Position numbers and translations under genes: made by a program
The notes under the pieces: generated by a model
Databases searched by the model: none
What the model was told of the DNA's origin: nothing
Seen by the model: only the letters and a program-made list of their open reading frames with translations
In this document: positions 3,070 through 28,449 of the stretch, piece after piece
Numbering within the stretch: the first letter of the stretch is position 1
Layout of the letters: every line of letters starts with the position of its first letter
Source: Candidatus Bathyarchaeia archaeon
GTDB taxonomy: Archaea; Thermoproteota; Bathyarchaeia; TCS64
DNA length: 33,181 nt
Direction of reading: 5' to 3'
Assembly: GCA_050014495.1 (NCBI GenBank)
Contig: JBEKDF010000030.1
Location: 1 to 33,181 of the forward strand

Positions 3070-3158
3070 GCGCCTTATTAAATATGCGCATATGCGTGCG
3101 CGCTTGGCTGTTTAGAAATTATTATAGAACATAGGGCGAACACTTCATTGAGGATAGG

Positions 3159-3235
3159 TTGAACGTTAAGTATGTGCTTGACTCACTCAACCTAGACCAG
3201 ATACGCGCAGAACTCGCGGAACGCGCGTGCGCATG
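3159..3235 (+). pseudogene. Probable 5' gene fragment (MNVKYVLDSLNLDQIRAELAER...) cut at an RY tract
   Basis: TTATA at about 3122, GAGGA just upstream and a TTG start. A helical-looking peptide runs into the ACGCGCGTGCGCATG tract at 3221-3235. Family not recognised. Confidence 0.35.
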
Positions 3236-7840: not shown

Positions 7841-8125
7841 TGCGCTTCCTGAAACAGCAAGTTTTTGTTTCCAATCAAGATTACGAAACACATAAATTTA
7901 CAATTATTATTTTTATAAATTTAAAATTATTTTTGTTTGTCTGTTTGTTTGTAGAGAGAGTGGTGGGGGTAAGAGAGTAAGAGGGTAGTGGAGTGTAGTT
8001 AGTGTTAGATAGTCGTGAGCGTAAGCGGTTGGGTTTGGGGTTTGGGGGGATAAGACTATTGCGCGCGCGGATTATGCAAAAGTAACTTTGGGTTAAGATT
8101 TTCTTAAGACGAGCTCGTGATAGTT

Positions 8126-9313
8126 TCAGCCACTATTAATAGGAAAACTATTGAAAACCATCTTCTGGACTTGTAGAGCCTCGTCGAGGTTCACCTCGGT
8201 ATTGAAGAAATGGGGGGAGATCCTGATACCTCCAACACCTCCAACATATCGATGTGAGACTACGATTCCCGCTTTCGTAAAGGCGTCATAACTCAATTGG
8301 TTCAATTCATAAGTTCCTAGACTATAGGTAACTACCCCAGCTCGACTAAATTCTTCAAAGGGGGTAATAATCTTAGCCCCCAAGTCTTTTAAGCCCTCGA
8401 TGAGGTAGCTGCTCAGCTTTAGGTCTCTCTCCTATACTTTTTTTATATCCAGCTCGTTAACGTAGCGTAGACTCTCATGAAAACCCATCTGAGCGTCCTC
8501 TCCGACGCACCCGGGGTCGAACTTTTCAGCCGTACTCACCATCGGTTTGTCCCATGATCGGATATTATCATGCCCAGGCTTGTCCCACGATGCCCGATCC
8601 CAAGTAAAATCCTCGTAAACCCTCCAATAGAACCTGTAAGAGGGCTCATATTGGCTAATCATCTCATCAGCAACATAGAGAACTGCGGCTCTCGCGAGGC
8701 AGCACATCCACTTCTCGCCGCCGAATACCAGGAAGTCAACTCCGTCTTCAACGGGGTCAACGTCAAGTACGCCGACTGCTTGGAAAGCGTCGTCGAGCAC
8801 TAGGGAGCCATGATTATGGGCGATTTTTGTAATCTCTTTTACATCGTTCCTAAGTCCGCTCGACCACTCAACTCTGTTCAGGTTCACTAGGCAGGTGTCG
8901 TCATCGATGGCTCTCTCGTAGTCGTCTAAGGTGATTAGGCCATTTGAGTTGTGTATCTGCCTGATCTCAACGCCTTTCTCCCTATGCCTAAGCCATGGGT
9001 AGACGGAGGAGGGGTAGCTTAGGTCGGTGAGTACAATGTTCTGGCCACTCTTGGGTTTTATGAGGTCTGATACGATGTTGATTCCCTGTGAGGCCCTGTG
9101 TATTAATGCGACATTGTCTCTGCCGCAGTGCAGGAGCTTGCCAACCTCGCCTCTAGTATCTGGGAGTTCTACTGTTTTTCCCCTCTCCCAGTTATCCCAT
9201 CGGTTTTCCACGGCGGCTTTTACTGGTGTTAGGACTGGGCCGCTGGCGGCTGTGTTGAGGTAGTTGACATTTCTTAGGATTGGAATATCTTCTCTGATAC
9301 GATCGATGTTCAT
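8126..9313 (-). pseudogene. Aminotransferase class V / cysteine desulfurase-like gene interrupted by one in-frame TAG (8432-8434)
   Basis: Motifs YLNTAASGP, DDAFQAVG and GGEKW (PLP lysine) lie in 9313-8432. The same frame continues after the TAG as ERDLKLSSYLIEGLKDLGAKIITP...IRISPHFFNT, ending at TGA 8126-8128. Confidence 0.85.
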
Positions 9314-11612: not shown

Positions 11613-11854
11613 TTGGAAGTTAGAAACAACTCAAAACAATAAGCTTAGAGTCGTTCAGCCTCGACCACACGAAGATCAAGGCCCCCTACATCAGATTATC
11701 AAAGAGAGTGGAAGTCCCCGGAAGTGGCTACGAGATCTCAACATTCGACTTCAGAGTTCGTATCCCGAACACGGAGCTTCTCACCCCGAAAATCACGCAC
11801 TCGCTGGAGCACCTCTTCGCCATCGCCCTAAGGGCGGAGTGCGCGCGCATGCAT
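11613..11854 (+). pseudogene. luxS: 5' fragment of S-ribosylhomocysteine lyase
   Basis: The frame from 11645 reads LESFSLDHTKIKAPYIRLSKRVEV...FDFRVRIPN..L....THSLEHLFA, matching the LuxS ESF.LDH..APY.R and HxxEH motifs. The TTG at 11613 is out of frame by one base. Similarity ends at GTGCGCGCGCATGCAT (11839-11854). Confidence 0.88.
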
Positions 11855-12006
11855 CATGAAGATCGTCCAATAGTTTTTATCCGGAGCCAAGAAATGTGCT
11901 GAATAGTTATTTAACTGACTTGTGCGCTTGTCTCGCGCGCCCGCGTAACGCTATTCTAACAGCGGTTCTAATAACTTACTGACTCACATTATCATGAATA
12001 GATGGA

Positions 12007-12654
12007 ATGAGGAAACCCCCAATAGCTGCGGTGATTGTGGCGCACCCTGATGATGAAACAATCTGGGCCGGCGGAACAGTGCTCATGAACTCTGACTGGA
12101 ATTGGATAATCGTATCGCTTTGTCGTGGTAAAGATCCAGACCGGGCACCCAGGTTCACCAAAGCTGTTCAACAACTTGGCGGAATAGGCTGGATCGGCGA
12201 TCTGGATGATGGATCAGAGCAATTGCCCCTTGATGACGCAAGAGTACAGCAGATGATACTTTCATTATTGTCTAACAGAGACTTCGACCTTGTCCTCACT
12301 CACAGTCCCTATGGGGAATATACTCGGCATCGTCGCCACGAAGAATGCAGTAAAGCAGTATCCAAGCTTTGGGAGGACGGACTCATTAGGACGAATAAGC
12401 TGTGCATGTTCGCTTACGGGGACAGCGGGAAGGGAGGTAAGGATGATCTCCCGCAAGCCATCAAGACCGCCCATAAAATAGATCAGTTACCTGAGGATGT
12501 GTTGATGAGAAAACGCCGCATCATAACCGACATATATGGCTTCGCCCCTGAAACGTATGAAGCCAAAATCGTGATGAGAGAAGAAGCATTCTGGTGCTTC
12601 AATTCCCCAGCTCATTTCCAAGAATGGTTGAAAACTAAGGGAGGATGGCCATGA
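12007..12654 (+). CDS. PIG-L/LmbE family N-acetylglucosaminyl deacetylase
   Basis: Metal motifs VAHPDDE and THSPYGEYTRHRRH. Confidence 0.85.
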   Translation: MRKPPIAAVIVAHPDDETIWAGGTVLMNSDWNWIIVSLCRGKDPDRAPRFTKAVQQLGGIGWIGDLDDGSEQLPLDDARVQQMILSLLSNRDFDLVLTHSPYGEYTRHRRHEECSKAVSKLWEDGLIRTNKLCMFAYGDSGKGGKDDLPQAIKTAHKIDQLPEDVLMRKRRIITDIYGFAPETYEAKIVMREEAFWCFNSPAHFQEWLKTKGGWP

Positions 12655-13793
12655 AAGTACTTGTTCAATACGAGTACCCGCCCTCCCCAGGTGGACTGGC
12701 GACCCAAGGCGACTTACTCTACCGAGGCCTGAAAGAAATAGGGGTTGACGCCTACGCGGTTCACTTCTCGTCCGCACAGGAAAAGGAGTGGTACTACAAT
12801 TGGTTTGCACCGGATATAGTTGTCGGGGCAGGCTATTGGGGACTGACCCCCGATCTAGTGCTCCACCCTCAGCGGTTTAACGTCCTACCAGTGCCCTGGT
12901 TAGTAGCTGATGGATACATAGCGAATTATCAGGATACCCTCGACGCGCTTCCACTCGTATTGGTTACATCACAATGGGTGAAAGACATATACATACGCGA
13001 CGGTCTACGCGGCAATAACATCGAGGTTCTACCAGTAGGGGTTGACACTGAATCCTTCGCGCCACATGACAAGAGTGAACAAAAAGTAGCTTACATCCGC
13101 GACACACTCGGTGTAAAACCTGAAGACCTTATGATCCTCACAGTAGGTGGAGACGCAGCATCGAAGGGGGCGCAGGAGATGATGCAAGCTTTAGCGCTCA
13201 TTGATGGGAAAGCGCCCAGCTGGAAATATGTGTGCAAGGTCTGGCCTCAGCAAAGGACCTTTCAGCAGAACCTCATGGATCTTCAACTCGCAACCTCCTT
13301 GGGCATCGATAAGAAGGTTATCTACACTACCAGCATTGTTTCACGGAATTTCATGCCCTACCTCATGAATGCGTGTGACATCTACGCGGCTCCTTCACGG
13401 CTAGAGGGGTTTGGCATGCCACAAGTTGAGGCTGGGGCCTGCGGCAAGCCAGTGATAAGCATCAACGCTATGGCTATGCTTGAAACCCTGGTCCATGGTG
13501 AAACGGCGTTTTTGGCCGGCGTAGCCACGGAAATCATGATTAAAGAGACAACCGTCGGCGAAGAGTCGGGTTGGGAGTCAAAGCACAGGGTAGTCTTTCC
13601 CTATCCGCGTACAGTTGACTACCGGGCCAGCATCCACGATATTGCGCAATACCTGATGGACCTCATGCAAGATGAGAAACTGCGCAGAAGAATGGGGGAG
13701 GCGGGTAGGAGAAGGGTAGTTGAGAAATATGACTATCGTGTAGTAGCAAAAAGGTTTGTGCAGTTAATAACAGAAAAACTGGGGATCTCGTAA
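12651..13793 (+). CDS. Glycosyltransferase family 4 (GT-B)
   Basis: Motifs YPPSPGG, GVDTESF, PSRLEGFGMPQVEAGACGKPVI and RMGEAGRRRVVEKYDY. ATGA overlap with the upstream stop. Confidence 0.9.
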   Translation: MKVLVQYEYPPSPGGLATQGDLLYRGLKEIGVDAYAVHFSSAQEKEWYYNWFAPDIVVGAGYWGLTPDLVLHPQRFNVLPVPWLVADGYIANYQDTLDALPLVLVTSQWVKDIYIRDGLRGNNIEVLPVGVDTESFAPHDKSEQKVAYIRDTLGVKPEDLMILTVGGDAASKGAQEMMQALALIDGKAPSWKYVCKVWPQQRTFQQNLMDLQLATSLGIDKKVIYTTSIVSRNFMPYLMNACDIYAAPSRLEGFGMPQVEAGACGKPVISINAMAMLETLVHGETAFLAGVATEIMIKETTVGEESGWESKHRVVFPYPRTVDYRASIHDIAQYLMDLMQDEKLRRRMGEAGRRRVVEKYDYRVVAKRFVQLITEKLGIS

Positions 13794-13794
13794 A

Positions 13795-14988
13795 TTGAAT
13801 GCAGAACAATGGGCTCAAGTTGAGGAGACAAAAAAAACAGCCCTTGAAGTGCTACTACATAATGATCGCGGGCCATACCACTCACTTCCAAGGACAGCCG
13901 GATGGGGGTACCCGGAGCCTTATACTCGAGACCTCTTAATCGGGGGGCTTGGCGTCCTAGCCTGCGGGAACCAAAAACTTGTGAATAGTCTTCGACGAGT
14001 GCTTCAGACATTAGCCGAAAACCAAAGCCCTTTGGGGCACATCCCGGGACTCGTCCATGACCCCGAGAATCTTGGTCAAAGTGATTCGACACCACTTTTC
14101 CTTCTCATCGTCGGCATATATAGAAAGGTAACCGGAGAGACAGACTTTCTAAAAGAAGCTGTACAGAAAGCGATGACGTGGATGGAATACCAAAGTCCAT
14201 CGAATAAAGTAATGGTAGCTCAACTACCCACCAGTGATTGGCGGGACGAGTATTGGGTACTGGGATACGGACTCTACGTCAACACGCTAGTCTACAGCTA
14301 TCTTATCCAACATGATCAAAACCAGAAAGCCTCCAGCATCTACATGGAGATAAAAAATTTTGCCATCCATGGAAAAGTCCAACATAAACACATTCACGAA
14401 GGTCTGACTCTTCACAAAAAACCCTATTACGCTGTCTGGGTGTACAAAGTCCTCAGCGACGAACATTTTGACCTGTTAGGCAACAGTTTGGCTATCCTAT
14501 CCGGCCTCGCCTCACAGTCGAAGTCAAAACGAATAGTTTCATGGGTTGAGCGCGAATGCCAAGCAATGCGTAAACGAGGCCAATTGGCGCTTGACCTCCC
14601 CCCCAACTTCTTCCCATACCTGTATCCAGGGGATCCAGATTGGCATCCACGATATGATATGTTCAATCAACCAGGAGAATACCACAACGGCGGAGTCTGG
14701 CCATTCGTCTGCAGCTTCTACATAGCAGCGATTGTGGCAGCGGGTAAATTCAGTTTGGCGGAAAAAAAGTTAATCGCCTTGACTCAGCTGGTTCGTCCAT
14801 CACGTGAAGCTAATGTCGCCTTTGGCTTCAACGAATGGTTCCGAGCCCAAGACGGAAAACCACGAGGACAAGACTGGCAAAGTTGGTCAGCGGCAATGTA
14901 TCTCTATGCGGCGATCTCGGTCGAGCAAAGAAGAACCCCATTTTTCGACGAAATTCGCGCGAAACGCGAGTCCTCTGAGATAAGGTAG
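13795..14988 (+). CDS. (alpha/alpha)6 glycoside hydrolase, amylo-alpha-1,6-glucosidase/GH100-like
   Basis: Motifs YTRD, DSTPLF, SDWRD, YHNGGVWPF, FNEW and QSWSAAMYL. TTG start 1 nt after the GT4 stop. Confidence 0.75.
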   Translation: MNAEQWAQVEETKKTALEVLLHNDRGPYHSLPRTAGWGYPEPYTRDLLIGGLGVLACGNQKLVNSLRRVLQTLAENQSPLGHIPGLVHDPENLGQSDSTPLFLLIVGIYRKVTGETDFLKEAVQKAMTWMEYQSPSNKVMVAQLPTSDWRDEYWVLGYGLYVNTLVYSYLIQHDQNQKASSIYMEIKNFAIHGKVQHKHIHEGLTLHKKPYYAVWVYKVLSDEHFDLLGNSLAILSGLASQSKSKRIVSWVERECQAMRKRGQLALDLPPNFFPYLYPGDPDWHPRYDMFNQPGEYHNGGVWPFVCSFYIAAIVAAGKFSLAEKKLIALTQLVRPSREANVAFGFNEWFRAQDGKPRGQDWQSWSAAMYLYAAISVEQRRTPFFDEIRAKRESSEIR

Positions 14989-15214
14989 CCGGGTTAACTA
15001 TCACGCACATCCGAGATGAATTGAGTGCACAGGGTCCTAAAGTTGATCACACGAGTCTTCATGTCAATTACTCACCTCTAATGGAGTGGGCTTGTGGTTC
15101 AACGTACACGAGATGAGGAACCTCTTATAGAGAAATGTAAAAAATATTTTAAAATTGCCACATTTACCACTTTCAGGTACTTCTAATCCCTTCCACGACT
15201 AAAGTCATGTTTTC

Positions 15215-16258
15215 TTAGGGAATTCTAATGATGTTATTTTCCTTGAGAAGGAGGTAGGCTAAATAGTAGGAAATAGTGGATTCTGCCCCTTTATTTTGGT
15301 TTAAGCCTTTAGAGGTAATTCCATCATAGCATCTGAAGCTATCCTTGTCAAATACCGGAGCCCGTTTTATGTTATTAGAATAATACCAATCAAATGCCTC
15401 GAGGGCCAAATCCCTATATTTGGCATTATTAGTGCATTTCATCGCTGAGACAGCTGCTTCAACCATGCATGAGGCTTCGATGGGCTGCTGGTCAAACTGA
15501 GCCTTCTTCCCTCCTCTATAGTACCAGCCCTTTGTTCCCACTGGCTGGAACATACCTTCTGAGAACTGTTCTTGGATCAGGAAATTCAGCGACTCTTCAG
15601 CCACCTCCAGATACGACTTGTTCTCGGTGGCACCGTAAGCCATGAATAATGCTTGGCACAATCTGGCATTGCAATATGTAAGGTAAGGTTCAAACCAGCG
15701 CCAATTTGGGCTCTTCTCCATTTTGTAGCGACTGACCAGGCTCCCAGCCAAGGCCTCAATATCTCCCAGAATATTTGTATCATCTGGAAAGCTCGAATAA
15801 TAATCAGCGAGCCCAATCAATGTGAAAGCCTTCCCTCTCAACGCATTGAAGCTCCGTGACCTGGGTAGCCCTTTATCGAACATCTCTCTAGCTATTTGTT
15901 TCATCTCACTAGTGGCGTTTGAGACTAGGGTGTAACCTGTGGCCCAAATTGTGCGACCGTTAGAGTCCTCTGAACCCATTTTATCCCTATACTTCCTATC
16001 GAAACCGAGCACATTATGGAAAATGCCCCTATTATTTTGCATGAAGAGCAAGAAGGTCAAGTATATGTGGGCTAAATTTAGGGCCTCAGGATCATTGTAG
16101 ATTTTATGGAACCTCAACGCCGCTATTAGCGCCCTAGCATTATCATCAGTCGTGTATCCTTCTCTCTTATCAATAGTCGAGAATTTGGTGTGTTGGAGTA
16201 TTCCCGTTTCGTCAGTCAGCGCCTTTAAGCCATCTAGTTTTAACTCAGGGTATTGCAT
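15215..16258 (-). CDS. Glycosyltransferase-associated helical-barrel protein (often found fused to GT4 as its C-terminal domain)
   Basis: Motifs LTDETGILQH, GYTTDDNARAL, SEDSNGR, WRWFEPYLTYCNARL, FDQQPIEA and CYDG..GLNQNKGAESTISY. The start is probably ATG 16258 because the upstream DNA is a GT relic. Confidence 0.75.
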   Translation of the reverse strand: MQYPELKLDGLKALTDETGILQHTKFSTIDKREGYTTDDNARALIAALRFHKIYNDPEALNLAHIYLTFLLFMQNNRGIFHNVLGFDRKYRDKMGSEDSNGRTIWATGYTLVSNATSEMKQIAREMFDKGLPRSRSFNALRGKAFTLIGLADYYSSFPDDTNILGDIEALAGSLVSRYKMEKSPNWRWFEPYLTYCNARLCQALFMAYGATENKSYLEVAEESLNFLIQEQFSEGMFQPVGTKGWYYRGGKKAQFDQQPIEASCMVEAAVSAMKCTNNAKYRDLALEAFDWYYSNNIKRAPVFDKDSFRCYDGITSKGLNQNKGAESTISYYLAYLLLKENNIIRIP

Positions 16259-16265
16259 CAATAGC

Positions 16266-16348
16266 TCACATTCCGATTCCTTCGTAGGAGAGGTACACAT
16301 ACCTCATATCGATGCAGGGTCTTTAAATTTGCACTCCATGGTAGCGCC
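16266..16348 (-). pseudogene. Relic of the 3' end of a second GT4 gene (paralog of 17871-19475)
   Basis: Encodes GATMECKFKDPASI and, after an internal deletion and frameshift, MRYVYLSYEGIGM*. The intact gene has GAALRCEFKDPHSI and MRYINEFYKDLGM*. Confidence 0.8.
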
Positions 16349-16760
16349 TTTCGAATCCTGACCTCACCCTCTTCGCCACGTTCTGAAGCACCTGGCTGAA
16401 CACGCAATTCAGCTCCGGATTCAACGCCTTCATCGATGGAAGAAGATACGTCAACGCCCCATGAGTCGGGGTCCCACGCACCCCTTCGCTCGTTCAAGCT
16501 GTGCTCCAGGAGGACGATGTACGCCCACCTGCAGAGACGTAGCTGCTCCCCAAGTACCACTGCCTGTTCGGTTGATGGTTTGAGGCGGTACCTGTAGGAG
16601 AGTCTGATTATATCTCTGGATCTGAACCGGTTTGATGGGTATGATTTAACTGAATCCCGTAATTCGGTGGGGGAGTTGGGTGAATGTGGATCCGCCTGTC
16701 GTGGAACGGATTCTTTGTTGATTCAATTCATCCCATAACTAAAGTATTGGGCTTTCTTAA
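16349..16760 (-). mobile_element. tnpB: Decayed IS200/IS605-family (IS1341-type) element: end hairpin plus frameshifted, truncated tnpB 5' part
   Basis: Minus-strand translation IRLSYRYRLKPSTEQAVVLGEQLRLCRWAY... / frameshift / ...LLPSMKALNPELNCVFSQVLQNVAKRVRSGFE resembles the TnpB N-terminus. The typical subterminal hairpin GAAAGCCCAATACTTTAGTTATGGGATGAA lies at 16756-16727. Confidence 0.85.
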
Positions 16761-16765
16761 TCTCC

Positions 16766-17650
16766 TCATCGTAAGATTTCATTTATGGAAAATTTTGATA
16801 CACTTATCACTGAATCCGCAGCTCCATAAGAAATCAAAACCTCATTCCCACGAAGAATAGCCCCACAACTGAACACAACGTTAGGAATAAAGCCATTACA
16901 CTCATAGTCCTCATAGGGCTCAAAAAATGGTGCTTCAGATCTGTATAATATCTTCTCAGGGTTACCCTTCTCAAGCAGCAAAGCACCCAGTCTATAAACC
17001 CTATTCTGATCCACGCCATGATAGATCTGCAGCCATCCCTCATCGATCTCAATTGGCGGCCCAGCTATTCCAACCCTTAAGCAGTCCCAGCTGTTTTTCC
17101 TCGGAGTCGTAACTATTCTCGAATCATTCCAGTTCCGCAAATCATCTGAGTAAGCAATGCATAGATTAGGATCAATCCTATGAAAAAGGACGTACTTCCC
17201 CCTCACCTTAACGGGGAATAATGCGCTGTCTTTGTCCGTGATACCGGGGAATGGGTGGGTCCTTTCATCCCAACACCAATTTTTTTCCAGGAGGTCCTTC
17301 GATTTTATTGAAGTAATCCCAATCTGTGGTGTTTCTGCGTAGGCTGTATAGGTCATGTAGCATCGATCACCCATCACAGTCACTCTTGGGTCCTCTACCC
17401 CCCGTACCTCTGAAGGATTTATCGGCTCAAAAACAGGGTGATCAACCCTTTCATCGATGTGTTGACCATCAGGAGACGACGCGTAACCCAATCGGGAGAC
17501 CATCTCATCCCCCATGGCTCTATATATGAAGTGAACCCTACCTCCGAGCTCGAACATTGCGGGATTAAAGACGAGTTTAGACTCCCAAATATGTTCAGGG
17601 ATTGGTTTCAGTATGGGATTACCTTCGAATCGCTCCATCCCCACCTTCAT
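16766..17650 (-). CDS. GH130-family glycosidase/mannoside phosphorylase (DUF377)
   Basis: Motifs NPILKP, VFNPA, GVEDPRV, DKDSALFP, GPPIEIDEGWLQIYHGV, PNVVFSCG and YGAAD. Confidence 0.88.
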   Translation of the reverse strand: MKVGMERFEGNPILKPIPEHIWESKLVFNPAMFELGGRVHFIYRAMGDEMVSRLGYASSPDGQHIDERVDHPVFEPINPSEVRGVEDPRVTVMGDRCYMTYTAYAETPQIGITSIKSKDLLEKNWCWDERTHPFPGITDKDSALFPVKVRGKYVLFHRIDPNLCIAYSDDLRNWNDSRIVTTPRKNSWDCLRVGIAGPPIEIDEGWLQIYHGVDQNRVYRLGALLLEKGNPEKILYRSEAPFFEPYEDYECNGFIPNVVFSCGAILRGNEVLISYGAADSVISVSKFSINEILR

Positions 17651-17728
17651 CTTAATTTATATTAATAATGATTTGGAATTTTACATTCTAACCAATGTTC
17701 ATTCTTCTAGAGTGCTTATTTCAGAACG

Positions 17729-17866
17729 CTATGTTCTCATCAAAATCGATAGAGATATTTCAGGTATAAGATACGAGATCAATGACTCAGCATATTTTTT
17801 AAATTTACCCCTGCAGGGTCACCCCATCATTAACAAGTGTAGCGCGCGATCTAAATCGGTCAGCAT
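17729..17866 (-). pseudogene. Internally deleted relic of a paralog of the 15215-16258 gene
   Basis: ATG CTG ACC GAT TTA GAT begins 4 nt after the GT4 stop. It is followed by the GCGCGCG tract (17842-17848), then a frameshifted YTC(Y)DGVTLQG(V)NLK.YAESLISYLI...*, which matches FRCYDGITSKGLNQNKGAESTISYYL in the intact gene. Confidence 0.75.
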
Positions 17867-17870
17867 CGTG

Positions 17871-19475
17871 TCACATTCCCAAATCCTTGTAGAACTCGTT
17901 GATGTATCTCATGGCGACGGTAGGCCATATCATTTCGCGGCTGTACTCATACGCTCTCCTCTCATAACTAGCCCTCATCCCATCATCCTTTATGAAGCTG
18001 TTAACATGCTCAGCGATTGAGTGTGGATCCTTAAACTCGCATCTTAAGGCAGCTCCCTGATATATGACCTCCTCTGCGTGGAGAAAAGGAGTAGTTACTA
18101 TGGCTTTCCCCGTGCTGAGTGCGTAGAGCATTGTGCCGCTGCTTATTTGTTCCCTATTCGGATACGGAAGAATGTACGTGTCTGTTGCTTGCAGGAATCT
18201 GATGAGATCGCCCTTATTCAAGAATCGGTTAACGAATCGGACATTCTTTTCAACACCGAGAGAATTCACCAAATCGTACAAGGATTGTCGATAGGATTCA
18301 CCCTCATGTTTCCTCACGTCGGGATGTGTTTCTCCAATAATAATGTAGAGTACGCGAGGTTCAACTGGGATTATCTCCGGCAAAGCTTTGATCGCATACT
18401 CTATACCTTTTCCACTGCTTATGAGGCCAAACGTGGATAATACATACCTATCCTTAAACCCTAAACCCGTCTTCGGCGTCTTACTCTTAAGAAAAGGCAC
18501 ATTTGGGCAGCCATGTGGAATGTACCTAATCTTATCCGGTAAGGCATCATAGCGCTCCTCTAGTATCCTAGACCCAGCTCTAGCAAGAACAACGATCCTG
18601 TAACTAAGCCTGATGACCTCCTTTAGAACCCGCTCCGCATTCGTATTGGGATCTGGGAGGATTGTGTGAAGGGTGGTAATAATGGGCTTCTTCAACTTTT
18701 CCATGAACGTGAGAAGATAATCGCCCCCGTCCCCCCCAAACAATCCATATTCGTGCTGAATATTCACTGCTCTAATACCCGAGCTGTTAATCTTTGAAGC
18801 CACGGCTTTGTAGCTCTCTCGATTCTCCCTCTCTATCTGTAACTTAACTTCCCCGGAGTAATCATAGTATTCCCCCTCATCGTTGATAGCGACAACCACA
18901 GGTGGAGGAAGGACCCCTTGATGGTTAATGGAGTCAACTAGATCAGATGTGAAGGTCGCTATCCCACACTCACGAGGGGGGTAAGAGCTGATATAGGCAA
19001 TAATCGGCTTATCGGTTGCAGTATACGTTACTTCTATATCTCTTCTATTGGATCTCTCCAAGTACGTATCATGTGCAACATTAAGCAGCCTTCTCTCAGT
19101 CGTTAAACCTATCAGTTTCCCCTTTTCTAATACGCCTAGCCTTCGAATATGTTTATCTCTTAATAGATCTATAGCCTCCTTAATAGATTTATTAGACTCA
19201 ATAGATATTAATGGGGAAGACATGATTTCTTCAACACGAGTATCATCGAGGTTCTTCTCAAATTTTAGAACCCTTTCAACTATGTCTCTTTCAGTAGCTA
19301 TACCAACCGGTAACTCATTTTCGGTTATAACCACTGCGCCTACATCGTAGGCAACTAACAGGTCAATCAACCTTGAGACTGATTCATGTCGAGTAATCAT
19401 GGGTGGCTCTAAATTTGTACTACTTAAAACCGGTAAATCGAACAAGATTTTAAAATATGAATCAGAGTTAGCCAT
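17871..19475 (-). CDS. CBS-pair + glycosyltransferase family 4 fusion protein
   Basis: N-terminal tandem CBS domains (VGIATERDIV, VEEIMSSPLISI, IRRLGV). GT4 motifs SYPPRECGIATFT, IQHEYGLFGG, TFGLISSGKGIE, GETHP and QISSGTMLYALSTGKAIVTTP. Confidence 0.88.
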   Translation of the reverse strand: MANSDSYFKILFDLPVLSSTNLEPPMITRHESVSRLIDLLVAYDVGAVVITENELPVGIATERDIVERVLKFEKNLDDTRVEEIMSSPLISIESNKSIKEAIDLLRDKHIRRLGVLEKGKLIGLTTERRLLNVAHDTYLERSNRRDIEVTYTATDKPIIAYISSYPPRECGIATFTSDLVDSINHQGVLPPPVVVAINDEGEYYDYSGEVKLQIERENRESYKAVASKINSSGIRAVNIQHEYGLFGGDGGDYLLTFMEKLKKPIITTLHTILPDPNTNAERVLKEVIRLSYRIVVLARAGSRILEERYDALPDKIRYIPHGCPNVPFLKSKTPKTGLGFKDRYVLSTFGLISSGKGIEYAIKALPEIIPVEPRVLYIIIGETHPDVRKHEGESYRQSLYDLVNSLGVEKNVRFVNRFLNKGDLIRFLQATDTYILPYPNREQISSGTMLYALSTGKAIVTTPFLHAEEVIYQGAALRCEFKDPHSIAEHVNSFIKDDGMRASYERRAYEYSREMIWPTVAMRYINEFYKDLGM

Positions 19476-19740
19476 GTATAATTATAATAAATCTTTATTT
19501 ATATTTCCTAGTACTCGCGCGCACTAATGGAGTGTTTGCGCGCGTGCAATACCCGGTATTTGACCCCTCCAACCTTCTGCTCGGTTGTAATCCTGCGGAT
19601 TAAGGCGGGTGCTCGCTGAAAGCACAATTCAGGGGAACTCTGACCTCAATGGACTTATATGCAGTGTATTTTGAAAAAAAAATTATGGATATAAATAATG
19701 CTGAGAAGATTCTTTAAGACCCAACTGAATGGGATAAAAT

Positions 19741-19911
19741 ATGGTTGATTATCAATGCCCTAGCTGTAATGCTCCCATGAAAGAGTTGGAGGTAAACGGG
19801 TTTAAGCTGTGGAAGTGTGACACTGAGAATAAGTTTTTTGATGTAGATGAGGGAAAGACAACTGAGATAAACGAAAAATGGTACAGAGCTCTAGCGGGAG
19901 AAAAGTTATAG
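19741..19911 (+). CDS. 56-aa zinc-ribbon-like microprotein (not in ORF track)
   Basis: MVDYQCPSCNAPMKELEVNGFKLWKCDTENKFFDVDEGKTTEINEKWYRALAGEKL*; CPxC motif plus a later Cys; AT-rich upstream DNA with TTTAA about 28 nt before the ATG. Confidence 0.6.
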   Translation: MVDYQCPSCNAPMKELEVNGFKLWKCDTENKFFDVDEGKTTEINEKWYRALAGEKL

Positions 19912-20206
19912 AAAGAAGATAAGGATTGATTCCATTAGATCAGTAATTAGTTTTAGTTACAATCATAAATATTTCGTGCGCGCTTAGAGCAACATAGTCT
20001 GAATAGACTACCGCTCATCAAGGTGAGAATAAAAGAAATGCAGTTCAGCTGCTTTAAGACGGAGATTTAAGGGGATGTGTATGATTCAAGAAATATCATT
20101 CATCCCGCAGAGGATTCCATTCATTAAATAGAATCACCCCCCGGAGCATGCGCACGTGCATTACTACTATCATCTCTATATCCTGCCAAATTCATCGCGC
20201 GAGCGA

Positions 20207-21690: not shown

Positions 21691-22221
21691 ATGGAGATAG
21701 AAGCTAAGATTCTTGAAGTCGATCCAATAAAAACAATTGATTATCTTGAACGGATAGGTGCTGTCAAGGTTTTTGATGGAGAGATTTATACTCTTTTTTA
21801 TGATACACCCACAAACGATATCAGTAAGAGGAAAGATTTGTTACGACTGCGTCGAATGGGTAATGAGGTTATTTTAACTTATAAACGGTATATCAGTGAT
21901 GAGAAATTAAAGAGACGTGAAGAATATGAGACTAATATTGGTAACTTAGAGGAAATGGACCTGATTCTTAGATCTCTTGGTTTCCAAGTCACTGAGAAAA
22001 TGATTAAAAAAAGGGTTAGTTTTGAAACCGAAAGCGCTCGAGTAGATATCGACGTTCATTTAGGGAATTATTCATTTATTCCTCCTATACTTGAAATTGA
22101 AGCAAAAGATGAGGAGACTATAAATAAGTTGGCTAAGGGCCTCGGCTTCTCGAGTGAGGATCTTTTAGCATGGGACTTTTTCGAAGTAGCCAAATATTAT
22201 TTAGCTAAAACTCCTAAATAA
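21691..22221 (+). CDS. CYTH-domain protein (class IV adenylate cyclase/triphosphatase-like)
   Basis: Motifs N-terminal EIEAK (ExExK), LRLR, LTYK, REEYE, KKR and LEIE. Confidence 0.88.
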   Translation: MEIEAKILEVDPIKTIDYLERIGAVKVFDGEIYTLFYDTPTNDISKRKDLLRLRRMGNEVILTYKRYISDEKLKRREEYETNIGNLEEMDLILRSLGFQVTEKMIKKRVSFETESARVDIDVHLGNYSFIPPILEIEAKDEETINKLAKGLGFSSEDLLAWDFFEVAKYYLAKTPK

Positions 22222-22354
22222 AAGTTAAAAAATATCCTATTATAACTATCCAATTTTTCAGTGAAATTCACTTAGGGTAATGTTTTTCTGTAATACTTCC
22301 GATAGACAATTCACGTATGTGACGTGATGAAGCGACTTCGTAAGAGGTGATGCA

Positions 22355-24529
22355 ATGGTTGATGAGGCTAAGAGTAGTTATAACAATTTGGATAATAACA
22401 AGGCGGTATTCTCAGACCGTGATTTCGAAGATACTATTCTAAACTTGGATGATCCAAGATTATATATTAACAAAGAGCTTAGCTGGCTCAAGTTACATGA
22501 GAGGATTCTTGAGGAGAGCCGAGATCTTAATCATCCTCTTTTAGAACGTGTAAAATTTCTAGCAATCTGCGGGGGCAACCTCGATGAATTCTTTATGGTT
22601 CGAGTTTCCGCACTAAACAAACAGGTCCTGAAGGGCTCAATTAAAGTGACCATTGATGGTAAGACCTCCCAGCAACAACTTGAAGTTATTCACCAAGAGG
22701 TTTTACCGATCCTCCGGCTCCACGAAGAGGTTTGGAATCACGAACTCCTACCAGAACTCTCGGAGGAGGGAATCCATATTACGAGAGTTGCTGATCTAAA
22801 CGAGAGTCAAAAAATCGCAGTAAGAAAGTATTTTGAGCTTCAAATTTTCCCAACTTTGACTCCTATGGCGATGGATATCTCACATCCATTCCCCTTCATA
22901 AGTAACTTGAGTCTGAACTTGGCAGTAATTTTAAGTGACAAGGAAAAACGTGAGAGGTTAGCGAGAGTCAAAGTGCCAACTGAAATCTTTCCGCGGTTTC
23001 AACATTTACTACTCGAAGAATACGAGGAAGACTTAGATAGATGTGCAGATGATGGTATCACATTACTTTTTCTAGAGGATATCATCGCTTCAAATTTAGA
23101 TCGGTTATTCCCTGGTATGGATATTGTTTCAGTATACCCCTTTAGAGTGACACGTGACGCAGAAGTTGAAATGAGTCTAGACCAGGTTAGTGACCTTCTG
23201 ACTGCTATCGAAGAGAGTATCAAAACACGCCGCTCAGGTAAATGTGTACGTCTAGAAGTCAATAAATCGATGCCGAATTCGCTTAGAAAAGTTTTAATGA
23301 AGAACTTAGAGCTGACACCCGATGCAGTCTTCTCATTCGACGGACCGCTTGGATTCATTGACTTTTGGCAATTATTAAAGATCGATCGCCCAGACCTGAA
23401 GGATGAGCCGTTTCTTCCCTACACACCAAGTGAACTAAGTGAGGGAAGTGATTATTTCAAAGCTATATCAAAGCGAGATTATATTTTGTACCACCCTTAC
23501 GATAGCTTTGATGTAGTGATCAATCTTCTGAAACAAGCCGCTGTCGATCCGGATGTATTGGCAATTAAAATTACCCTTTACAGGATAGATAAGAAGAGTC
23601 CCATCATTGATGCTCTACTTCAAGCAACGCAACATAAGAAGAACGTTACAGCCATCGTCGAATTAAAGGCCAAGTTTGATGAGGAGAATAACATCAATTG
23701 GGGTAAGCGGTTAGAACATGCGGGTGTCCATGTAGCCTACGGTTTCCCAGAACTCAAGGTTCATGCAAAATTATGTCTTATAATCAGAAAAGAGGGGGAG
23801 AGAATAGTCAGGTATAGTCACTTAAGCTCTGGGAATTACAATTCAGTTACCTCTCGAATCTATGGGGACATCGGGTACCTGACAGCTAATCAAGAGATTG
23901 GCGCAGAGGTCAACGATCTATTCAATTATCTCACCGGCTATAGCGAGAAAGATGATTATCGTTACCTTCTAGTGGGGCCGCAGACGCTTAAGAAAGAGAT
24001 TATCAGTCGAATAAATAGGGAGATTGAGAAGCATAAAAAAGAGGGAAAAGGATACATCGCAATAAAAGCAAACAATCTTGAAGAAAAGGACATCATCAAG
24101 ACTCTTTATCAGGCAAGTCAAGCGGGAGTTAGAGTAGACCTGAATATCCGCGCCTTGTGCAGTCTCCGCCCCGGGATTAAGGGCGTCAGCGATAAAATAA
24201 GAGTGACTAGCATCATAGGGCGATTTCTTGAACATTCAAGAATCTTTTACTTCAGAAATGGGGGGGAGGACGATGTGCTGCTTGGAAGCAGCGACCTCAT
24301 GCATAGAAACCTCGAGAAGCGAGTCGAGGTGCTCTTTCCCGTCCCAGATCCACTGTTACGCAAACTCATAATAGAGAAAATATTGAATATTCACTTAAAT
24401 GACACAGTTAAAATGAGGGAGCTGATGAGTGATGGCTCCTGGAAACATGCGAAACCGATCGAAGGTAAAGAACCGATTAATTCACAGCAGTGGCTAATCG
24501 ACCATAAGGGAGATTGGCATTGTGCTTGA
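22355..24529 (+). CDS. ppk1: Polyphosphate kinase 1
   Basis: Motifs NKELSWL, PLLERVKFLAI...NLDEFFMVRV, HPFPFISN, HPYDSF, AIKITLYR, ELKAKFDEENNI, KVHAK, GRFLEHSR and GSSDLMHRNLEKRVE. Confidence 0.96.
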   Translation: MVDEAKSSYNNLDNNKAVFSDRDFEDTILNLDDPRLYINKELSWLKLHERILEESRDLNHPLLERVKFLAICGGNLDEFFMVRVSALNKQVLKGSIKVTIDGKTSQQQLEVIHQEVLPILRLHEEVWNHELLPELSEEGIHITRVADLNESQKIAVRKYFELQIFPTLTPMAMDISHPFPFISNLSLNLAVILSDKEKRERLARVKVPTEIFPRFQHLLLEEYEEDLDRCADDGITLLFLEDIIASNLDRLFPGMDIVSVYPFRVTRDAEVEMSLDQVSDLLTAIEESIKTRRSGKCVRLEVNKSMPNSLRKVLMKNLELTPDAVFSFDGPLGFIDFWQLLKIDRPDLKDEPFLPYTPSELSEGSDYFKAISKRDYILYHPYDSFDVVINLLKQAAVDPDVLAIKITLYRIDKKSPIIDALLQATQHKKNVTAIVELKAKFDEENNINWGKRLEHAGVHVAYGFPELKVHAKLCLIIRKEGERIVRYSHLSSGNYNSVTSRIYGDIGYLTANQEIGAEVNDLFNYLTGYSEKDDYRYLLVGPQTLKKEIISRINREIEKHKKEGKGYIAIKANNLEEKDIIKTLYQASQAGVRVDLNIRALCSLRPGIKGVSDKIRVTSIIGRFLEHSRIFYFRNGGEDDVLLGSSDLMHRNLEKRVEVLFPVPDPLLRKLIIEKILNIHLNDTVKMRELMSDGSWKHAKPIEGKEPINSQQWLIDHKGDWHCA

Positions 24530-26051
24530 GAATAATGAGTCTCTCTGCGCACAGGGAATGAGACAAATAGATGGCCTACTAAACATCCTTGAATACAATC
24601 TTAACAACGCAAAGACTGGTGAAGACATTGAAGATGTTCATCAAAGTAGGGTCACCAGCAGAAGACTGCGTGCGGCCCTTCAAGTGTATAATCCCTGCTT
24701 CGAGAAAGACATTGTTAAACGGTGGAGAGAAGAAGTAAAGAAAATTACAATAAACCTAGGTGAAATTCGAGATATAGACGTACAAATAGGTTACCTCGAA
24801 ACTTTAACCAAGAACTCTGATACCCGCCCAGGAGTCACGCTTCTCTTAGAAAGACACAGGTCTAAGCGTTTAAAACTCCAGTACAAGGTCGAGTCAACAA
24901 TTAGAGACTTCGAAAACTCGGGTATAATGGGGGAAATTAGAGATTACCTGATCAATGTTCACGAGGAGCAGGAGGCATCCATTAAACCTGATACCCCTAC
25001 ACTAAACTTCGTTAGAGAAAACCTCCAGCTTAGATTCTCAGAACTCTTTTCTCTCGAGAAATACATCCATAGGGAAGACGCTGTAAAACGTCACCATCAA
25101 CTCAGAATTGCAGCCAAGAGACTCAGATATGCCCTTGAATTATACCAGGAGCCATACAGGGATAAGATAAAGCCGATGATTGAGACAGTCAAGGGATTCC
25201 AGGATCTGCTCGGCGAGATCCACGACGGAGATATTTGGATCGAATACATCCCCAAAATTACGAGTAAATTATCTCACAAACTACCACGAGGAAAAAGAGG
25301 TTCCACCGTAAAGGATTTGGACCGATTACATAGCCAAATTATCGATAGACGCCACAATTTATATTTGGAATTCTATTCTAGTTGGACTAAGGAAAAGAAT
25401 AATGGCTTCTTTGAGTCTCTTCGAGGCCTCATAATGGGAATACCAGATACTGGAGTAATAACTGAACACAGTAAGACCTTAACATTAGTAAAACAAGTAG
25501 AAGAGAAGTACGACCCTGACCCAAACCACTCTTCTCAGGTAACAAATCTCGCTCTGAGTCTCTTTGATGAATTATCTTGGCTCCACGATCTGAATACCCG
25601 AGACAGGGAATTATTGGAGTACGCCGCGATGCTCCATGATATCGGATGGTTCATCAACGGAGAAGTTCATAGTATTCACTCCATGGATATGATCCTATCT
25701 GACATGGATCTTCCATTCGACAGTTCTACACGCCTAATGGTCGCAAATATCGCCAGGTATCACAATAAGGGTACGCCGAATATTGCTGATGAAAAATATG
25801 CGCTCCTAATGCCAGAAGAGGCATGTAGGGTAAGCAAACTTTCAGCGATACTCAGGGTCGCTGATGGGCTCGATGCCAATCACAGCAGGGTAGTCAAAAG
25901 CCTGAAAGCAAGAGACGACGAGAACTCCATTATACTGGAGTGCTTAACGGACAGCGACTACAGAATGGAAGAGGATGCCATACGCAAGAAGAGGAAACTA
26001 TTCAAGAAGGTCTTCGGGAAACCACTCAGGATAGAGTGGAAGACGGCATAG
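24522..26051 (+). CDS. CHAD-domain protein fused to a Ppx/GppA-type HD domain
   Basis: Two CHAD repeats (VHQSRVTSRRLRA...LGEIRDIDV; HQLRIAAKRLRYALE...QDLLGEIHDGD) followed by HD motifs HSSQVTNLALSLFD, LHDIG, ARYH and LRVADGLD. Confidence 0.88.
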   Translation: MLENNESLCAQGMRQIDGLLNILEYNLNNAKTGEDIEDVHQSRVTSRRLRAALQVYNPCFEKDIVKRWREEVKKITINLGEIRDIDVQIGYLETLTKNSDTRPGVTLLLERHRSKRLKLQYKVESTIRDFENSGIMGEIRDYLINVHEEQEASIKPDTPTLNFVRENLQLRFSELFSLEKYIHREDAVKRHHQLRIAAKRLRYALELYQEPYRDKIKPMIETVKGFQDLLGEIHDGDIWIEYIPKITSKLSHKLPRGKRGSTVKDLDRLHSQIIDRRHNLYLEFYSSWTKEKNNGFFESLRGLIMGIPDTGVITEHSKTLTLVKQVEEKYDPDPNHSSQVTNLALSLFDELSWLHDLNTRDRELLEYAAMLHDIGWFINGEVHSIHSMDMILSDMDLPFDSSTRLMVANIARYHNKGTPNIADEKYALLMPEEACRVSKLSAILRVADGLDANHSRVVKSLKARDDENSIILECLTDSDYRMEEDAIRKKRKLFKKVFGKPLRIEWKTA

Positions 26052-27598
26052 CCAAGGGTGTCGTCGCCTTCATCGATATAGGGTCGAATTCCGTTAGGCT
26101 ATTGGTTGTCCATATTCGTGGCGGCGGATTCACGGTACTACGCGAAGAGAAGGAGACGATTCGTCTCGGCGATCGAGTGTTCTTAGAAGGGTTCCTCAAC
26201 GACCAAGCAATCGAACGTTGTGTTAACACACTAAAAAAGTTCATAAAAATCTCGAAGGGATTCAACGTCGAATCGATCGTGGCAGTAGCCACGTCAGCGC
26301 TTCGAGATGCCAGCAATCAGAAGAAATTCATAAGAACAATCAAGAACAAAGTCGGTTTGGATGTGAATGTCGTCTCCGGAAAGGAGGAGGCGAGATTAAT
26401 CTACCTCGGTGTATCAAGTGACGTAAATTTAGGATCCAAAAACGCGCTCTTTATAGATGTAGGCGGAGGTAGCACTGAGCTAATAATAGGTAACCAATAT
26501 GGACACAGTGTCATAAGTAGCCTGAACGCGGGCGCAATAAGGTTAACGAGTCTTTTCCAGAAACGTCCCTGGGATAAGGAAATAGAAAACGACACCTATC
26601 AGAATATGTGCAGTTACGTCAGAGCAGAACTTATGAAATCGGAGTTAAGGCATCGACGTAAGATATCGAACTCATTTGGTAGCTCCGGCACCATCATCAA
26701 TTTGGCCGAAATGACTAAAGGGAATAAGCAAAACGAGGCTTTATCGCTAAAAGTGAAGGATCTGAAGAAATTAACCGATGTACTTCGTGCTCTTCCACTA
26801 GATGAGCGAAAAAAATATCCTGGTATAAACCCGGATAGAGCAGATATCATTGTCGGAGGCGCAGCAATTCTTGAGACCGTTATGGATGAACTTCATGTCC
26901 AAGAGATCAAAGTGAGCAAGAGGGGCATAAATTACGGTCTCCTCGTCGACTATATGTCGAAGATACATGGAGGCGCCACATCTAAGCATGTGGTGAGGGA
27001 GCAGAGTATTCAGGACATGGCCAATACCTACCATGCAAACAACGCCCATAGCCAGAACGTGACACGTTTATCTCGAGAACTATTTGATAGCTCACGGAAA
27101 TCCGGTATTAACAAGCTTGGCGAGCAGGAGAAGAAACTTTTAAAATATTCCTCACTTCTCCACGATGTTGGTAACGCAATAGCATATAGGGATCATAACC
27201 TTCACGGAGAGTATATAATTAAGAACTCCGAGTTGCTCGGCTTCGACCAGTCGGAGATTAGTGTTATCGCGTCCAATGTTAGATTTCATATGAAACGGCT
27301 ACCCACACGAAAAGATCTTAATGAGACTGGATTATCAAAAAACAATCGCAAAGTTGTCAAGATTTTATCAGCTTTCTTAAGAATGGCTGAGTACTTGGAT
27401 CGCAGCCACCTAGGTCACGTGAAAAGAGCTGAGATTGTTGCTGGCGATGGAGGAAAGGCAAGTCTTCTACTCTACGCCGATGAAGATATTGAAGTTGAAC
27501 TTTGGGGACTGAAATTTATACAGACTTGCTTTTTATCAGTATTCGGTATGAAGTTAAAAGTAGATGTTCTACCAACTCAACTTATTGATAGTAATTAG
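26036..27598 (+). CDS. ppx: Exopolyphosphatase Ppx/GppA with C-terminal HD domain
   Basis: Motifs IDIGSNSVRL, ATSALRDA, SGKEEARLIY, DVGGGSTE, RADIIVGG and LLHDVG. The start is uncertain; GTG 26036 is preferred over 25940. Confidence 0.92.
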   Translation: MEDGIAKGVVAFIDIGSNSVRLLVVHIRGGGFTVLREEKETIRLGDRVFLEGFLNDQAIERCVNTLKKFIKISKGFNVESIVAVATSALRDASNQKKFIRTIKNKVGLDVNVVSGKEEARLIYLGVSSDVNLGSKNALFIDVGGGSTELIIGNQYGHSVISSLNAGAIRLTSLFQKRPWDKEIENDTYQNMCSYVRAELMKSELRHRRKISNSFGSSGTIINLAEMTKGNKQNEALSLKVKDLKKLTDVLRALPLDERKKYPGINPDRADIIVGGAAILETVMDELHVQEIKVSKRGINYGLLVDYMSKIHGGATSKHVVREQSIQDMANTYHANNAHSQNVTRLSRELFDSSRKSGINKLGEQEKKLLKYSSLLHDVGNAIAYRDHNLHGEYIIKNSELLGFDQSEISVIASNVRFHMKRLPTRKDLNETGLSKNNRKVVKILSAFLRMAEYLDRSHLGHVKRAEIVAGDGGKASLLLYADEDIEVELWGLKFIQTCFLSVFGMKLKVDVLPTQLIDSN

Positions 27599-27624
27599 TA
27601 TAAATCGCGGAGTATAATTGAAAC

Positions 27625-28449
27625 TTGATCAAAATGGACATACATACTAAGAGATACCACGTTGAACCGGGACAAAAAATCAAGATAGAAGAATGGGACC
27701 CCGGAGATACCTCAGGCTTCGAAGGTGAGAAAGAACAATCAGTAGATGTGATGCAAGTAAACAAGAATAGTCTTGAGTCACTTCAGGAGATCCTTTTCGC
27801 CGAGCATGAACATAAGATACTCATAGTTCTCCAAGCCATGGACACTGGCGGAAAAGACGGCGTTATCCGACGCGTGTTTGAAGCAGTAAATCCACAAGGT
27901 GTAAGAGTTGTAAATTTCAAAGAACCGTCTATAAATGAGCTTGATCACGACTACCTCTGGCGCGTTCATGCCCAAGTTCCAATAAAAGGTGAGCTGGTCA
28001 TTTTCAACCGTAGCCACTACGAGGATGTCCTAATTGCCAGGGTACATGAACTCGCACCAGCCGATGTAATCGAGAAAAGGTATCAGCAGATAATGGACTT
28101 CGAAAGAATGCTGTCGGAGGAGGGTTCAACGATAATGAAGTTCTTTTTAAACATAAGTTACGACATGCAGAAAAAGCGACTACAGGATAGACTTGCTGAT
28201 CCAACAAAACAGTGGAAATTCAATATTAACGATCTAAACGAGCGGAAAGATTGGAAAGCATATATGAAGTCCTATGAAATTCTCTTAAGTAAAACCAGCA
28301 CAGATTGGGCCCCTTGGTATATTATACCCTCGGATCATGAATGGATTCGCGACTTGTTAATTTCGAAGATAATAATAAGTACTCTTGAGAAATTGGATAT
28401 GCATTATCCAAAGCTTAAACAGGATCCAAAAACAATTGAAATTTCCTAG
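27625..28449 (+). CDS. ppk2: Polyphosphate kinase 2 family (class III-like polyP:nucleotide phosphotransferase)
   Basis: Motifs LQAMDTGGKDG (Walker A), VNPQG, HDYLWR, FNRSHYEDVL, WKFN..D..ER and APWYIIPSD. The start is TTG 27625 or ATG 27634. Confidence 0.93.
   Translation: MIKMDIHTKRYHVEPGQKIKIEEWDPGDTSGFEGEKEQSVDVMQVNKNSLESLQEILFAEHEHKILIVLQAMDTGGKDGVIRRVFEAVNPQGVRVVNFKEPSINELDHDYLWRVHAQVPIKGELVIFNRSHYEDVLIARVHELAPADVIEKRYQQIMDFERMLSEEGSTIMKFFLNISYDMQKKRLQDRLADPTKQWKFNINDLNERKDWKAYMKSYEILLSKTSTDWAPWYIIPSDHEWIRDLLISKIIISTLEKLDMHYPKLKQDPKTIEIS

Follow-up and report, generated by a model that had tools for sequence, protein, structure and literature searches.

Downstream of an intact glycosyltransferase gene in a Bathyarchaeia genome lies the remnant of a partner gene that has kept only its two ends, and between these ends stands a short alternating run of G and C. 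The locus raises the question of where the bases of this run came from, that is, whether the intact gene already held them or whether they were added when the ends were joined. The window (the whole stretch analysed, 33,181 nt) is contig C30 of a 3.1-Mb Bathyarchaeia assembly (G000). The stretch occurs mostly in peat or wetland metagenome runs, no RNA run being among those listed, and the protein relatives of the GT4 gene are nearly all from Bathyarchaeia. Here the minus strand carries a sugar-metabolism cluster in which a CBS-GT4 gene, the relic, a GH130 gene and a gene for a 347-aa alpha/alpha-toroid-like protein lie together (Table 1).

Table 1. Features around the deletion junction, in window coordinates.
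Feature	Position	Strand	Remarks
CBS-domain and GT4 glycosyltransferase gene, intact, upstream partner of the deleted gene	17871..19475	-	orthologs 77-78% in G008 and G015
First six codons (MLTDLD) kept from the deleted partner gene	17849..17866	-	orthologs start MLTDQD, MLTDQN, MLTGQN
(GC)n tract, deletion junction	17842..17848		~6 bases probably new; the base at 17842 can derive from the 3'-side Asn codon
Last 37 codons of the partner gene kept, three 1-nt indels and stop codon	17729..17841	-	72-74 of 98 columns identical to intact alleles L011 and L010
GH130 glycoside phosphorylase gene, intact, downstream neighbour	16766..17650	-	gene order as in G008
347-aa paralog of the deleted gene, intact, second cassette	15215..16258	-	88% identical to the partner in G004
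Two short remnants of the second cassette's own GT4 gene	16266..16350	-	joined over a ~100-nt gap by a 2-nt overlap, no GC tract

On the minus strand, the GT4 stop codon TGA (17873-17871) is followed by 4 nt, by ATG CTG ACC GAT TTA GAT (17866-17849) and by CGCGCGC (17848-17842), after which the sequence continues as TAC ACT TGT... up to a TAG at 17731-17729. The initial annotation had described a probable start ATG 4 nt past the GT4 stop with five further codons, then GCGCGCG, then the last ~37 codons of the partner, and the sequence reads exactly so. The gap is visible by comparison with G008, which has the same gene order, a GT4 protein 77% identical, an intact partner of 343 aa and a GH130 protein 80% identical. 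The N-terminus of the G008 partner differs from that of the relic, and the origin of LTDLD was not decided by these loci alone. One possibility was that LTDLD came from the 3' side, as it scores against an L-x-D-x-D motif just before the 3' break. This was dropped when a protein search returned intact orthologs starting MLTDQDKLSGL (P0132), MLTDQNKLSGL (P0129-P0131) and MLTGQNRLSGL (P0003), which place LTDLD at the N-terminus. At the other end, P0132 finishes in ILMRV where the relic has ILMRT, and its part from the junction Tyr onwards is exactly 37 residues long. Because P0132-type orthologs match the relic at both ends, codons 1-6 and 308-344 were kept and codons 7-307 were lost, which amounts to 301 codons or ~902 nt. 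The annotation's estimate of ~300 missing codons, its assignment of both flanks to one former gene (MLTDQDK...ILMRV in the orthologs) and its placement of the tract at an intragenic junction, exactly between codon 6 and the Tyr of the 3' part, are all borne out; MLTDLD, whose status as the partner's N-terminus it had treated as decisive, is shown to be just that by the MLTDQD orthologs.

The relic carries three 1-nt indels relative to G008 and G015, and later frameshifts of this kind had been taken to argue against an amplification artefact. Two runs not flagged as a possible source of the DNA, X7 (17583-18316) and X17 (17619-18093), have contigs that read across the junction without differences. 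In run X10 the relic is also present in a ~98% identical strain, which has two 1-nt indels of its own (17794 and 17857) and no listed contig joint there, and these extra indels indicate that some of the indels postdate the deletion. The bridging contigs and the diverged X10 strain rule out an assembly or amplification artefact, as the junction is not confined to one library. How the three frameshifts and the deletion followed one another is shown only in part. As judged from sequence comparison, the deletion is confirmed as real, with MLTDLD as the true N-terminus and the tract at the junction.

We then asked what the intact gene offers at the two breaks. Neither GCGC nor CGCG occurs at either break in any of 56 distinct intact alleles. 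Among the matches listed with their first residues, 11 orthologs start with MLT, and 10 of them have Lys as codon 7 (P0003 has Arg); the 3' side contributes only the last C of an Asn codon. On these grounds about six of the seven tract bases would be new; an ancestral Arg codon CGN would lower this to three or four. In the window as a whole GCGCGCG occurs 25 times against 1.78 expected, a count reached in 0 of 100 shuffles. The initial annotation had proposed that such tracts are scars or microhomologies, and that undeleted orthologs would tell whether the bases pre-existed at both break points or were added de novo. The orthologs have no CGCG or GCGC there, which upholds the scar, with de novo addition of the bases, and not the microhomology. 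It had also held this junction to be the best evidence for scars. Here we disagree, as the nearest intact DNA is only ~75% identical; the junctions at L081, L082, L085 and L095, each compared with an intact allele 94-99% identical, provide the stronger evidence.

Two of these are independent deletions of the same gene in two other lineages, 535 nt long at L081 and 774 nt at L085, each replaced by 10 bases. Those 10 bases are found on neither side in the intact L080 (95-98% identical), and the L080 segments deleted in L081 and L085 hold no alternating run longer than 5 nt. The same pattern was seen for L082 against L085 (8 new bases) and for L095 against L094 (9 new bases). The pseudogene in the window is ordinary by itself; its value is that, together with L081 and L085, it shows the gene to have been deleted three times independently, with a run of this kind at every joint. 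Inside this genome, three paralog pairs differ by gaps of 167, 317 and 455 nt, at which the ends are joined by tracts of 9, 8 and 10 nt, respectively, and across tract-sealed cases the DNA lost between the ends amounts to 69-903 nt. A tract was found in 5 of the 17 junction rows in the fetched loci, one of them (L095:3848) lying between two older tracts; the 12 tract-less rows include gene swaps and duplicate rows.

The tracts are abundant in the genome as a whole. There are 645 of at least 7 nt, nearly all of them no longer than 10 nt (111 at 10 nt, 5 at 11 nt and only 12 above 10), and single contigs have between 0 and 12 of them per 10 kb. Most (528) are non-coding in the sense that they lie in the 17% of DNA left outside ORFs by the ORF caller. 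Tracts of at least 6 nt were present at 52 of 759 ends of paralog homology, from which 61 IS ends had been left out, as compared to 58 of 3892 nearby control windows (4.6-fold). In G106, a second tract-rich genome, the figures were 29 of 185 and 19 of 920 (7.6-fold). The motif was in the derived copy only at 36 of the 52 ends here and at 19 of the 29 in G106, some events being counted twice among these rows. Across 301 genomes of the class, matches to GCGCGCGCG ranged from 0 to 508 and were patchy within genera, the highest number being that of G106 (39.6% GC). Breakpoints without a tract make up 93% here and 84% in G106, and the second GT4 remnant in the window also lacks one, which indicates that other joining routes operate as well.

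The bases that precede the tract differ between the two genomes, being ATGC here and TAGC in G106. An AT lead-in stands before 186 of 789 G-starting ends here (82 expected), and a TA lead-in before 388 of 823 in G106 (103 expected). Counts of ATGCGCGC and TAGCGCGC are 273 and 84 in this genome and 56 and 472 in G106, respectively, and TAGCTAGC occurs 407 times in G106 as compared to 48 here. In the G106 loci (L157-L255), (TAGC)n runs adjoining tracts are plentiful, and TA-flanked GCGCGCGC is found; (GC)n, (TAGC)n and (ATGC)n are all self-complementary. Many of the new-sequence ends are also in register with what was retained. In G106, 14 of 19 new-sequence ends, read by eye, share one retained base or more with the TAGCGC register; where the retained end is T, AGC follows in 5 of 7 cases, and ends retained at A, G or C go on in the same register. 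In this genome the last retained base is in phase in 12 of 16 ends that directly abut a tract. The register is weaker here, and on the 5' side of the window junction a retained T is followed by C, which is outside the ATGC register. The specificity of the lead-in to the lineage would favour a fixed template over pure slippage.

The explanation that we find the most convincing, and consider rather probable on the sequence comparisons made here, is that the CGCGCG run was written onto broken and resected ends by a putative polymerase that adds a short fixed repeat, whereupon the self-complementary tails paired and were ligated. A double-strand break would be followed by resection, and the last 1-3 bases of a 3' end would pair with a fixed template, which may be an RNA or a protein itself. 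A few bases of the palindromic repeat would then be added to the 3' end. Two such tails would anneal to each other, and fill-in and ligation would complete the joint without Ku; the limit of ~10 nt would correspond to the length of the template or to the overlap needed. It could be speculated further, with appreciably less confidence, that this is a dedicated Bathyarchaeia end-joining system in which the polymerase takes a few bases from its own RNA or from a protein template to produce universal self-complementary sticky ends. If so, the system would drive deletions, gene capture and shuffling, and each genome would bear hundreds of its lineage-specific scars, on which some insertion sequences would have evolved to land. 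With a self-written pairing sequence no homology would be required and any two ends could be joined, which would explain mosaic accessory regions. The scars would be a record of past rearrangements, and the difference between ATGC and TAGC offers a direct test for locating the enzyme or its template.

Another possibility is that no fixed template is involved and that the run arises by snap-back and slippage on a palindromic end of 1-2 bases, which the replicative primase or some ordinary polymerase extends until the overlap holds. Polymerases are able to synthesise repeats from short palindromes in vitro. All of the products observed are palindromic repeats, many retained ends supply their last G or C, and genes for PriS, PolB2 and a PolX-like protein are present in both genomes compared, in neither of which was a dedicated gene found. 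However, it is not readily explained in this way why one lineage has ATGC and another TAGC, and A was written after a retained T in G106. Moreover, all of the genomes among which the pattern matches vary from 0 to 508 have PriS. We therefore regard snap-back as unlikely, although it is the alternative that survives best.

Footprints of IS5/IS1182-like elements that insert, delete adjacent DNA and excise are a much less probable source of the tracts. An association does exist: of 45 matches to one IS end motif, 40 have GCGC or CGCG in front of them; (GC)3-5 borders the full copies at either end, and a second IS family is alike in this. On the other hand, the tract-rich genomes G106 and G137 gave no DUF772 match, the transposases of this genome have no match in G106, and IS ends explain only about one-tenth of the tracts. 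A target is missing from the breaks in the intact alleles, and neither L081 nor L085 nor the window junction has an IS remnant. IS copies are themselves interrupted at tract junctions (C33:31598 and window 3222). An origin from IS footprints predicts the element in scar-rich genomes and its target in the ancestral allele; G106 and G137 gave no match to the element family, and the intact alleles lack the target. IS elements that target existing tracts fit the data better than IS elements that make them.

The IS copies of this genome were also inspected in their own right. In one family, marked by DUF772 and DDE domains, full copies (for example C5:82611-83894, C61:6043-7308 and C43:15781-17065) and a 418-nt non-autonomous copy on C34 are enclosed between (GC)3-5 runs, and the family appears to target scars. 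On C32:1-20000, no empty IS site was readable from four runs beyond an 11-nt loose end. In the window, two IS5/IS1182-like element ends (1-123 and 3098-3227) each abut a (GC)n tract, and the second is cut after ~110 nt at a tract-like junction where it is joined to an unrelated gene fragment.

More improbable still is the addition of the bases by Ku and the LigD polymerase in prokaryotic NHEJ. This genome does encode Ku, LigD polymerase and ligase in a cluster on C3, and Ku is found in 14 of 17 congeners. Over the 301 Bathyarchaeia genomes, however, Ku (73 with a match) does not follow tract abundance: among the 29 genomes with at least 80 pattern matches only 10 have a Ku match and 19 do not, and 47 of the 73 Ku-positive genomes have no more than 10 pattern matches. 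LigD polymerase was not found in any of five Ku-less tract-rich genomes (G021, G106, G137, G292 and G104; two are single contigs, and they are 86-96% complete). These incomplete assemblies thus point to scars that occur without Ku and LigD. In addition, the bases added by archaeo-prokaryotic NHEJ are not known to form a fixed repeat. That system, described for Methanocella paludicola with Ku, LigD polymerase, phosphoesterase and ligase, resembles the tracts in that end joining can add a few bases (PMC8708640), and its genes are present here; the review calls archaeal NHEJ very rare. At C3:64206-67463 (L147) the genes for LigD polymerase and Ku lie together with that of a ligase, the C-terminal part of which looks phosphoesterase-like by eye. 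Least probable of all is that pre-existing (GC)n runs, fragile or acting as microhomology (Z-DNA or HIP1-like sites), are where the deletions end, for although pre-existing tracts do serve as secondary deletion sites (as at L095:3848, and at the 16 of 52 tract-bearing ends here that share GCGC with the reference), the motif is at the breaks in none of the 56 intact alleles and is confined to the derived copy at most of the ends in both genomes. As the origin of the tract at the window junction this reading is refuted, save for the case of a lost ancestor with the motif in frame at both breaks.

Joining by a written repeat would be an undescribed way of rejoining DNA. In a literature search that covered mostly papers outside subscription, no description of these tracts was found. 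For archaea that lack Ku, the route of rejoining broken DNA that has been studied experimentally is microhomology joining. As in the MMEJ of Haloferax volcanii (PMC12281630), the events seen here involve short pairing and the loss of DNA between the ends (69-903 nt) and are independent of Ku, 19 of the 29 tract-rich genomes being without a Ku match; the GC content of the paired stretch matters in that system. In contrast, the bases paired in Haloferax pre-exist on both sides, whereas here the sequence is new and nearly fixed, with no motif at the breaks of the intact alleles and 8-10 new bases in the four close pairs. The main text of PMC12281630 makes no mention of insertion or of non-templated bases.

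New bases that allow resected ends to pair are familiar from the filler DNA of eukaryotes, in which the N-nucleotides added by TdT are random and the insertions made by Pol theta are copied from nearby DNA. The tracts are alike in that new bases create the pairing, but they consist of one self-complementary repeat with a lineage-specific lead-in and have no nearby source. A fixed short repeat is added to 3' ends by telomerase, also at breaks, in register after minimal pairing. The TAGCGC register of the G106 ends may be like this (it is weaker in this genome, and the window junction does not have it); unlike telomerase, no reverse transcriptase was found in the five genomes tested and no template RNA here, and the ends are joined by the repeat, not capped. 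The DRT3 enzymes (PMC13174585) synthesise alternating dinucleotide DNA on a short RNA template or on the protein itself, which yields products that pair. They differ in being reverse transcriptases that make long free poly(GT/AC) for phage defence, as compared to 8-10 bases at chromosomal junctions. The mobile-element primase-polymerase AgaPP (PMC11724360), an AEP with terminal transferase and MMEJ activity, indicates that enzymes of this class can join ends, but the available text of that paper describes no fixed-sequence product, and no such gene tracks the tracts here. By analogy, the joining itself would resemble filler-assisted end joining, and the addition of a fixed repeat would resemble telomerase or DRT3.

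We searched for the writing enzyme and its template, and the screens returned no writer gene or template in this genome or in G106; such screens can miss divergent genes, and the G106 assembly is 86% complete. Three extra AEP families were considered, none of which tracks tract abundance or has a conserved adjacent RNA. The first, a 439-aa AEP on C20, was rejected with matches in 8 of 301 genomes (two of them partial) and no conserved flanking RNA. It is PriS-like over two matched stretches and forms a two-gene module with a 115-aa protein (L144:548-2210) that is found in varying contexts. The second, a 268-aa AEP on C53, was rejected as it occurs in 13 of 301 genomes and is often broken; GGCGCGC lies upstream in three relatives without a significant fold or alignment, and no viral relative of this protein was found. 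The third family (~260-305 aa; 8 of 10 fetched loci read) is mostly in tract-poor genomes. Screens of shared proteins gave no extra AEP common to this genome and G106, and no extra primase was seen among the proteins shared with G106, which were inspected visually and for motifs, 30 of them also with Pfam; the filter against a tract-less genome compared only ~0.3 of the 1.3 Mb of G034.

Other candidates fared no better. Prim-Pol (PF09250) and the reverse transcriptase RVT_1 were each found in none of the five genomes, a family that we take to be nucleotidyltransferase-like is present in 44 of 53 genomes of both tract-rich and tract-poor kinds, and a 235-aa protein had no informative Atlas match. 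For a template RNA we used fold scans round the tracts and around template-like words, which gave one candidate, while Rfam gave no match in the window. The candidate (L304:148-279, on C71) is single-copy and folds stably into a three-way junction (z -3.9) in which a GCGCAU linker is unpaired. A covariance model built from this one sequence found no match in the tract-rich G011, G013, G016 and G106, and in DNA searches only short weak matches were obtained, in 3 of 280 other genomes.

The 347-aa paralog likely makes the loss of the partner gene tolerable, as the second cassette nearby retains it intact and has itself lost its GT4 gene. The two homologous cassettes each retain the gene lost by the other, which is a case of reciprocal gene loss. 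One X10 contig skips 8.5 kb of the window (11623-20156) and has in its place a 27-nt insert starting CACGCGCTCGC. The cassette is present on other X10 contigs, one of which starts at the tract at 11841, and so seems to be located elsewhere in that strain. Elsewhere in the window, a polyphosphate cluster (21691-28449; CYTH, PPK1, CHAD-HD, Ppx/GppA and PPK2) has no tract of 6 nt or more inside it. At 8126-9313, the 85-aa ORF that comes after a 293-aa class-V aminotransferase ORF may be the C-terminus split from it; tracts lie on either side of the two ORFs, at 8061 and 9355.
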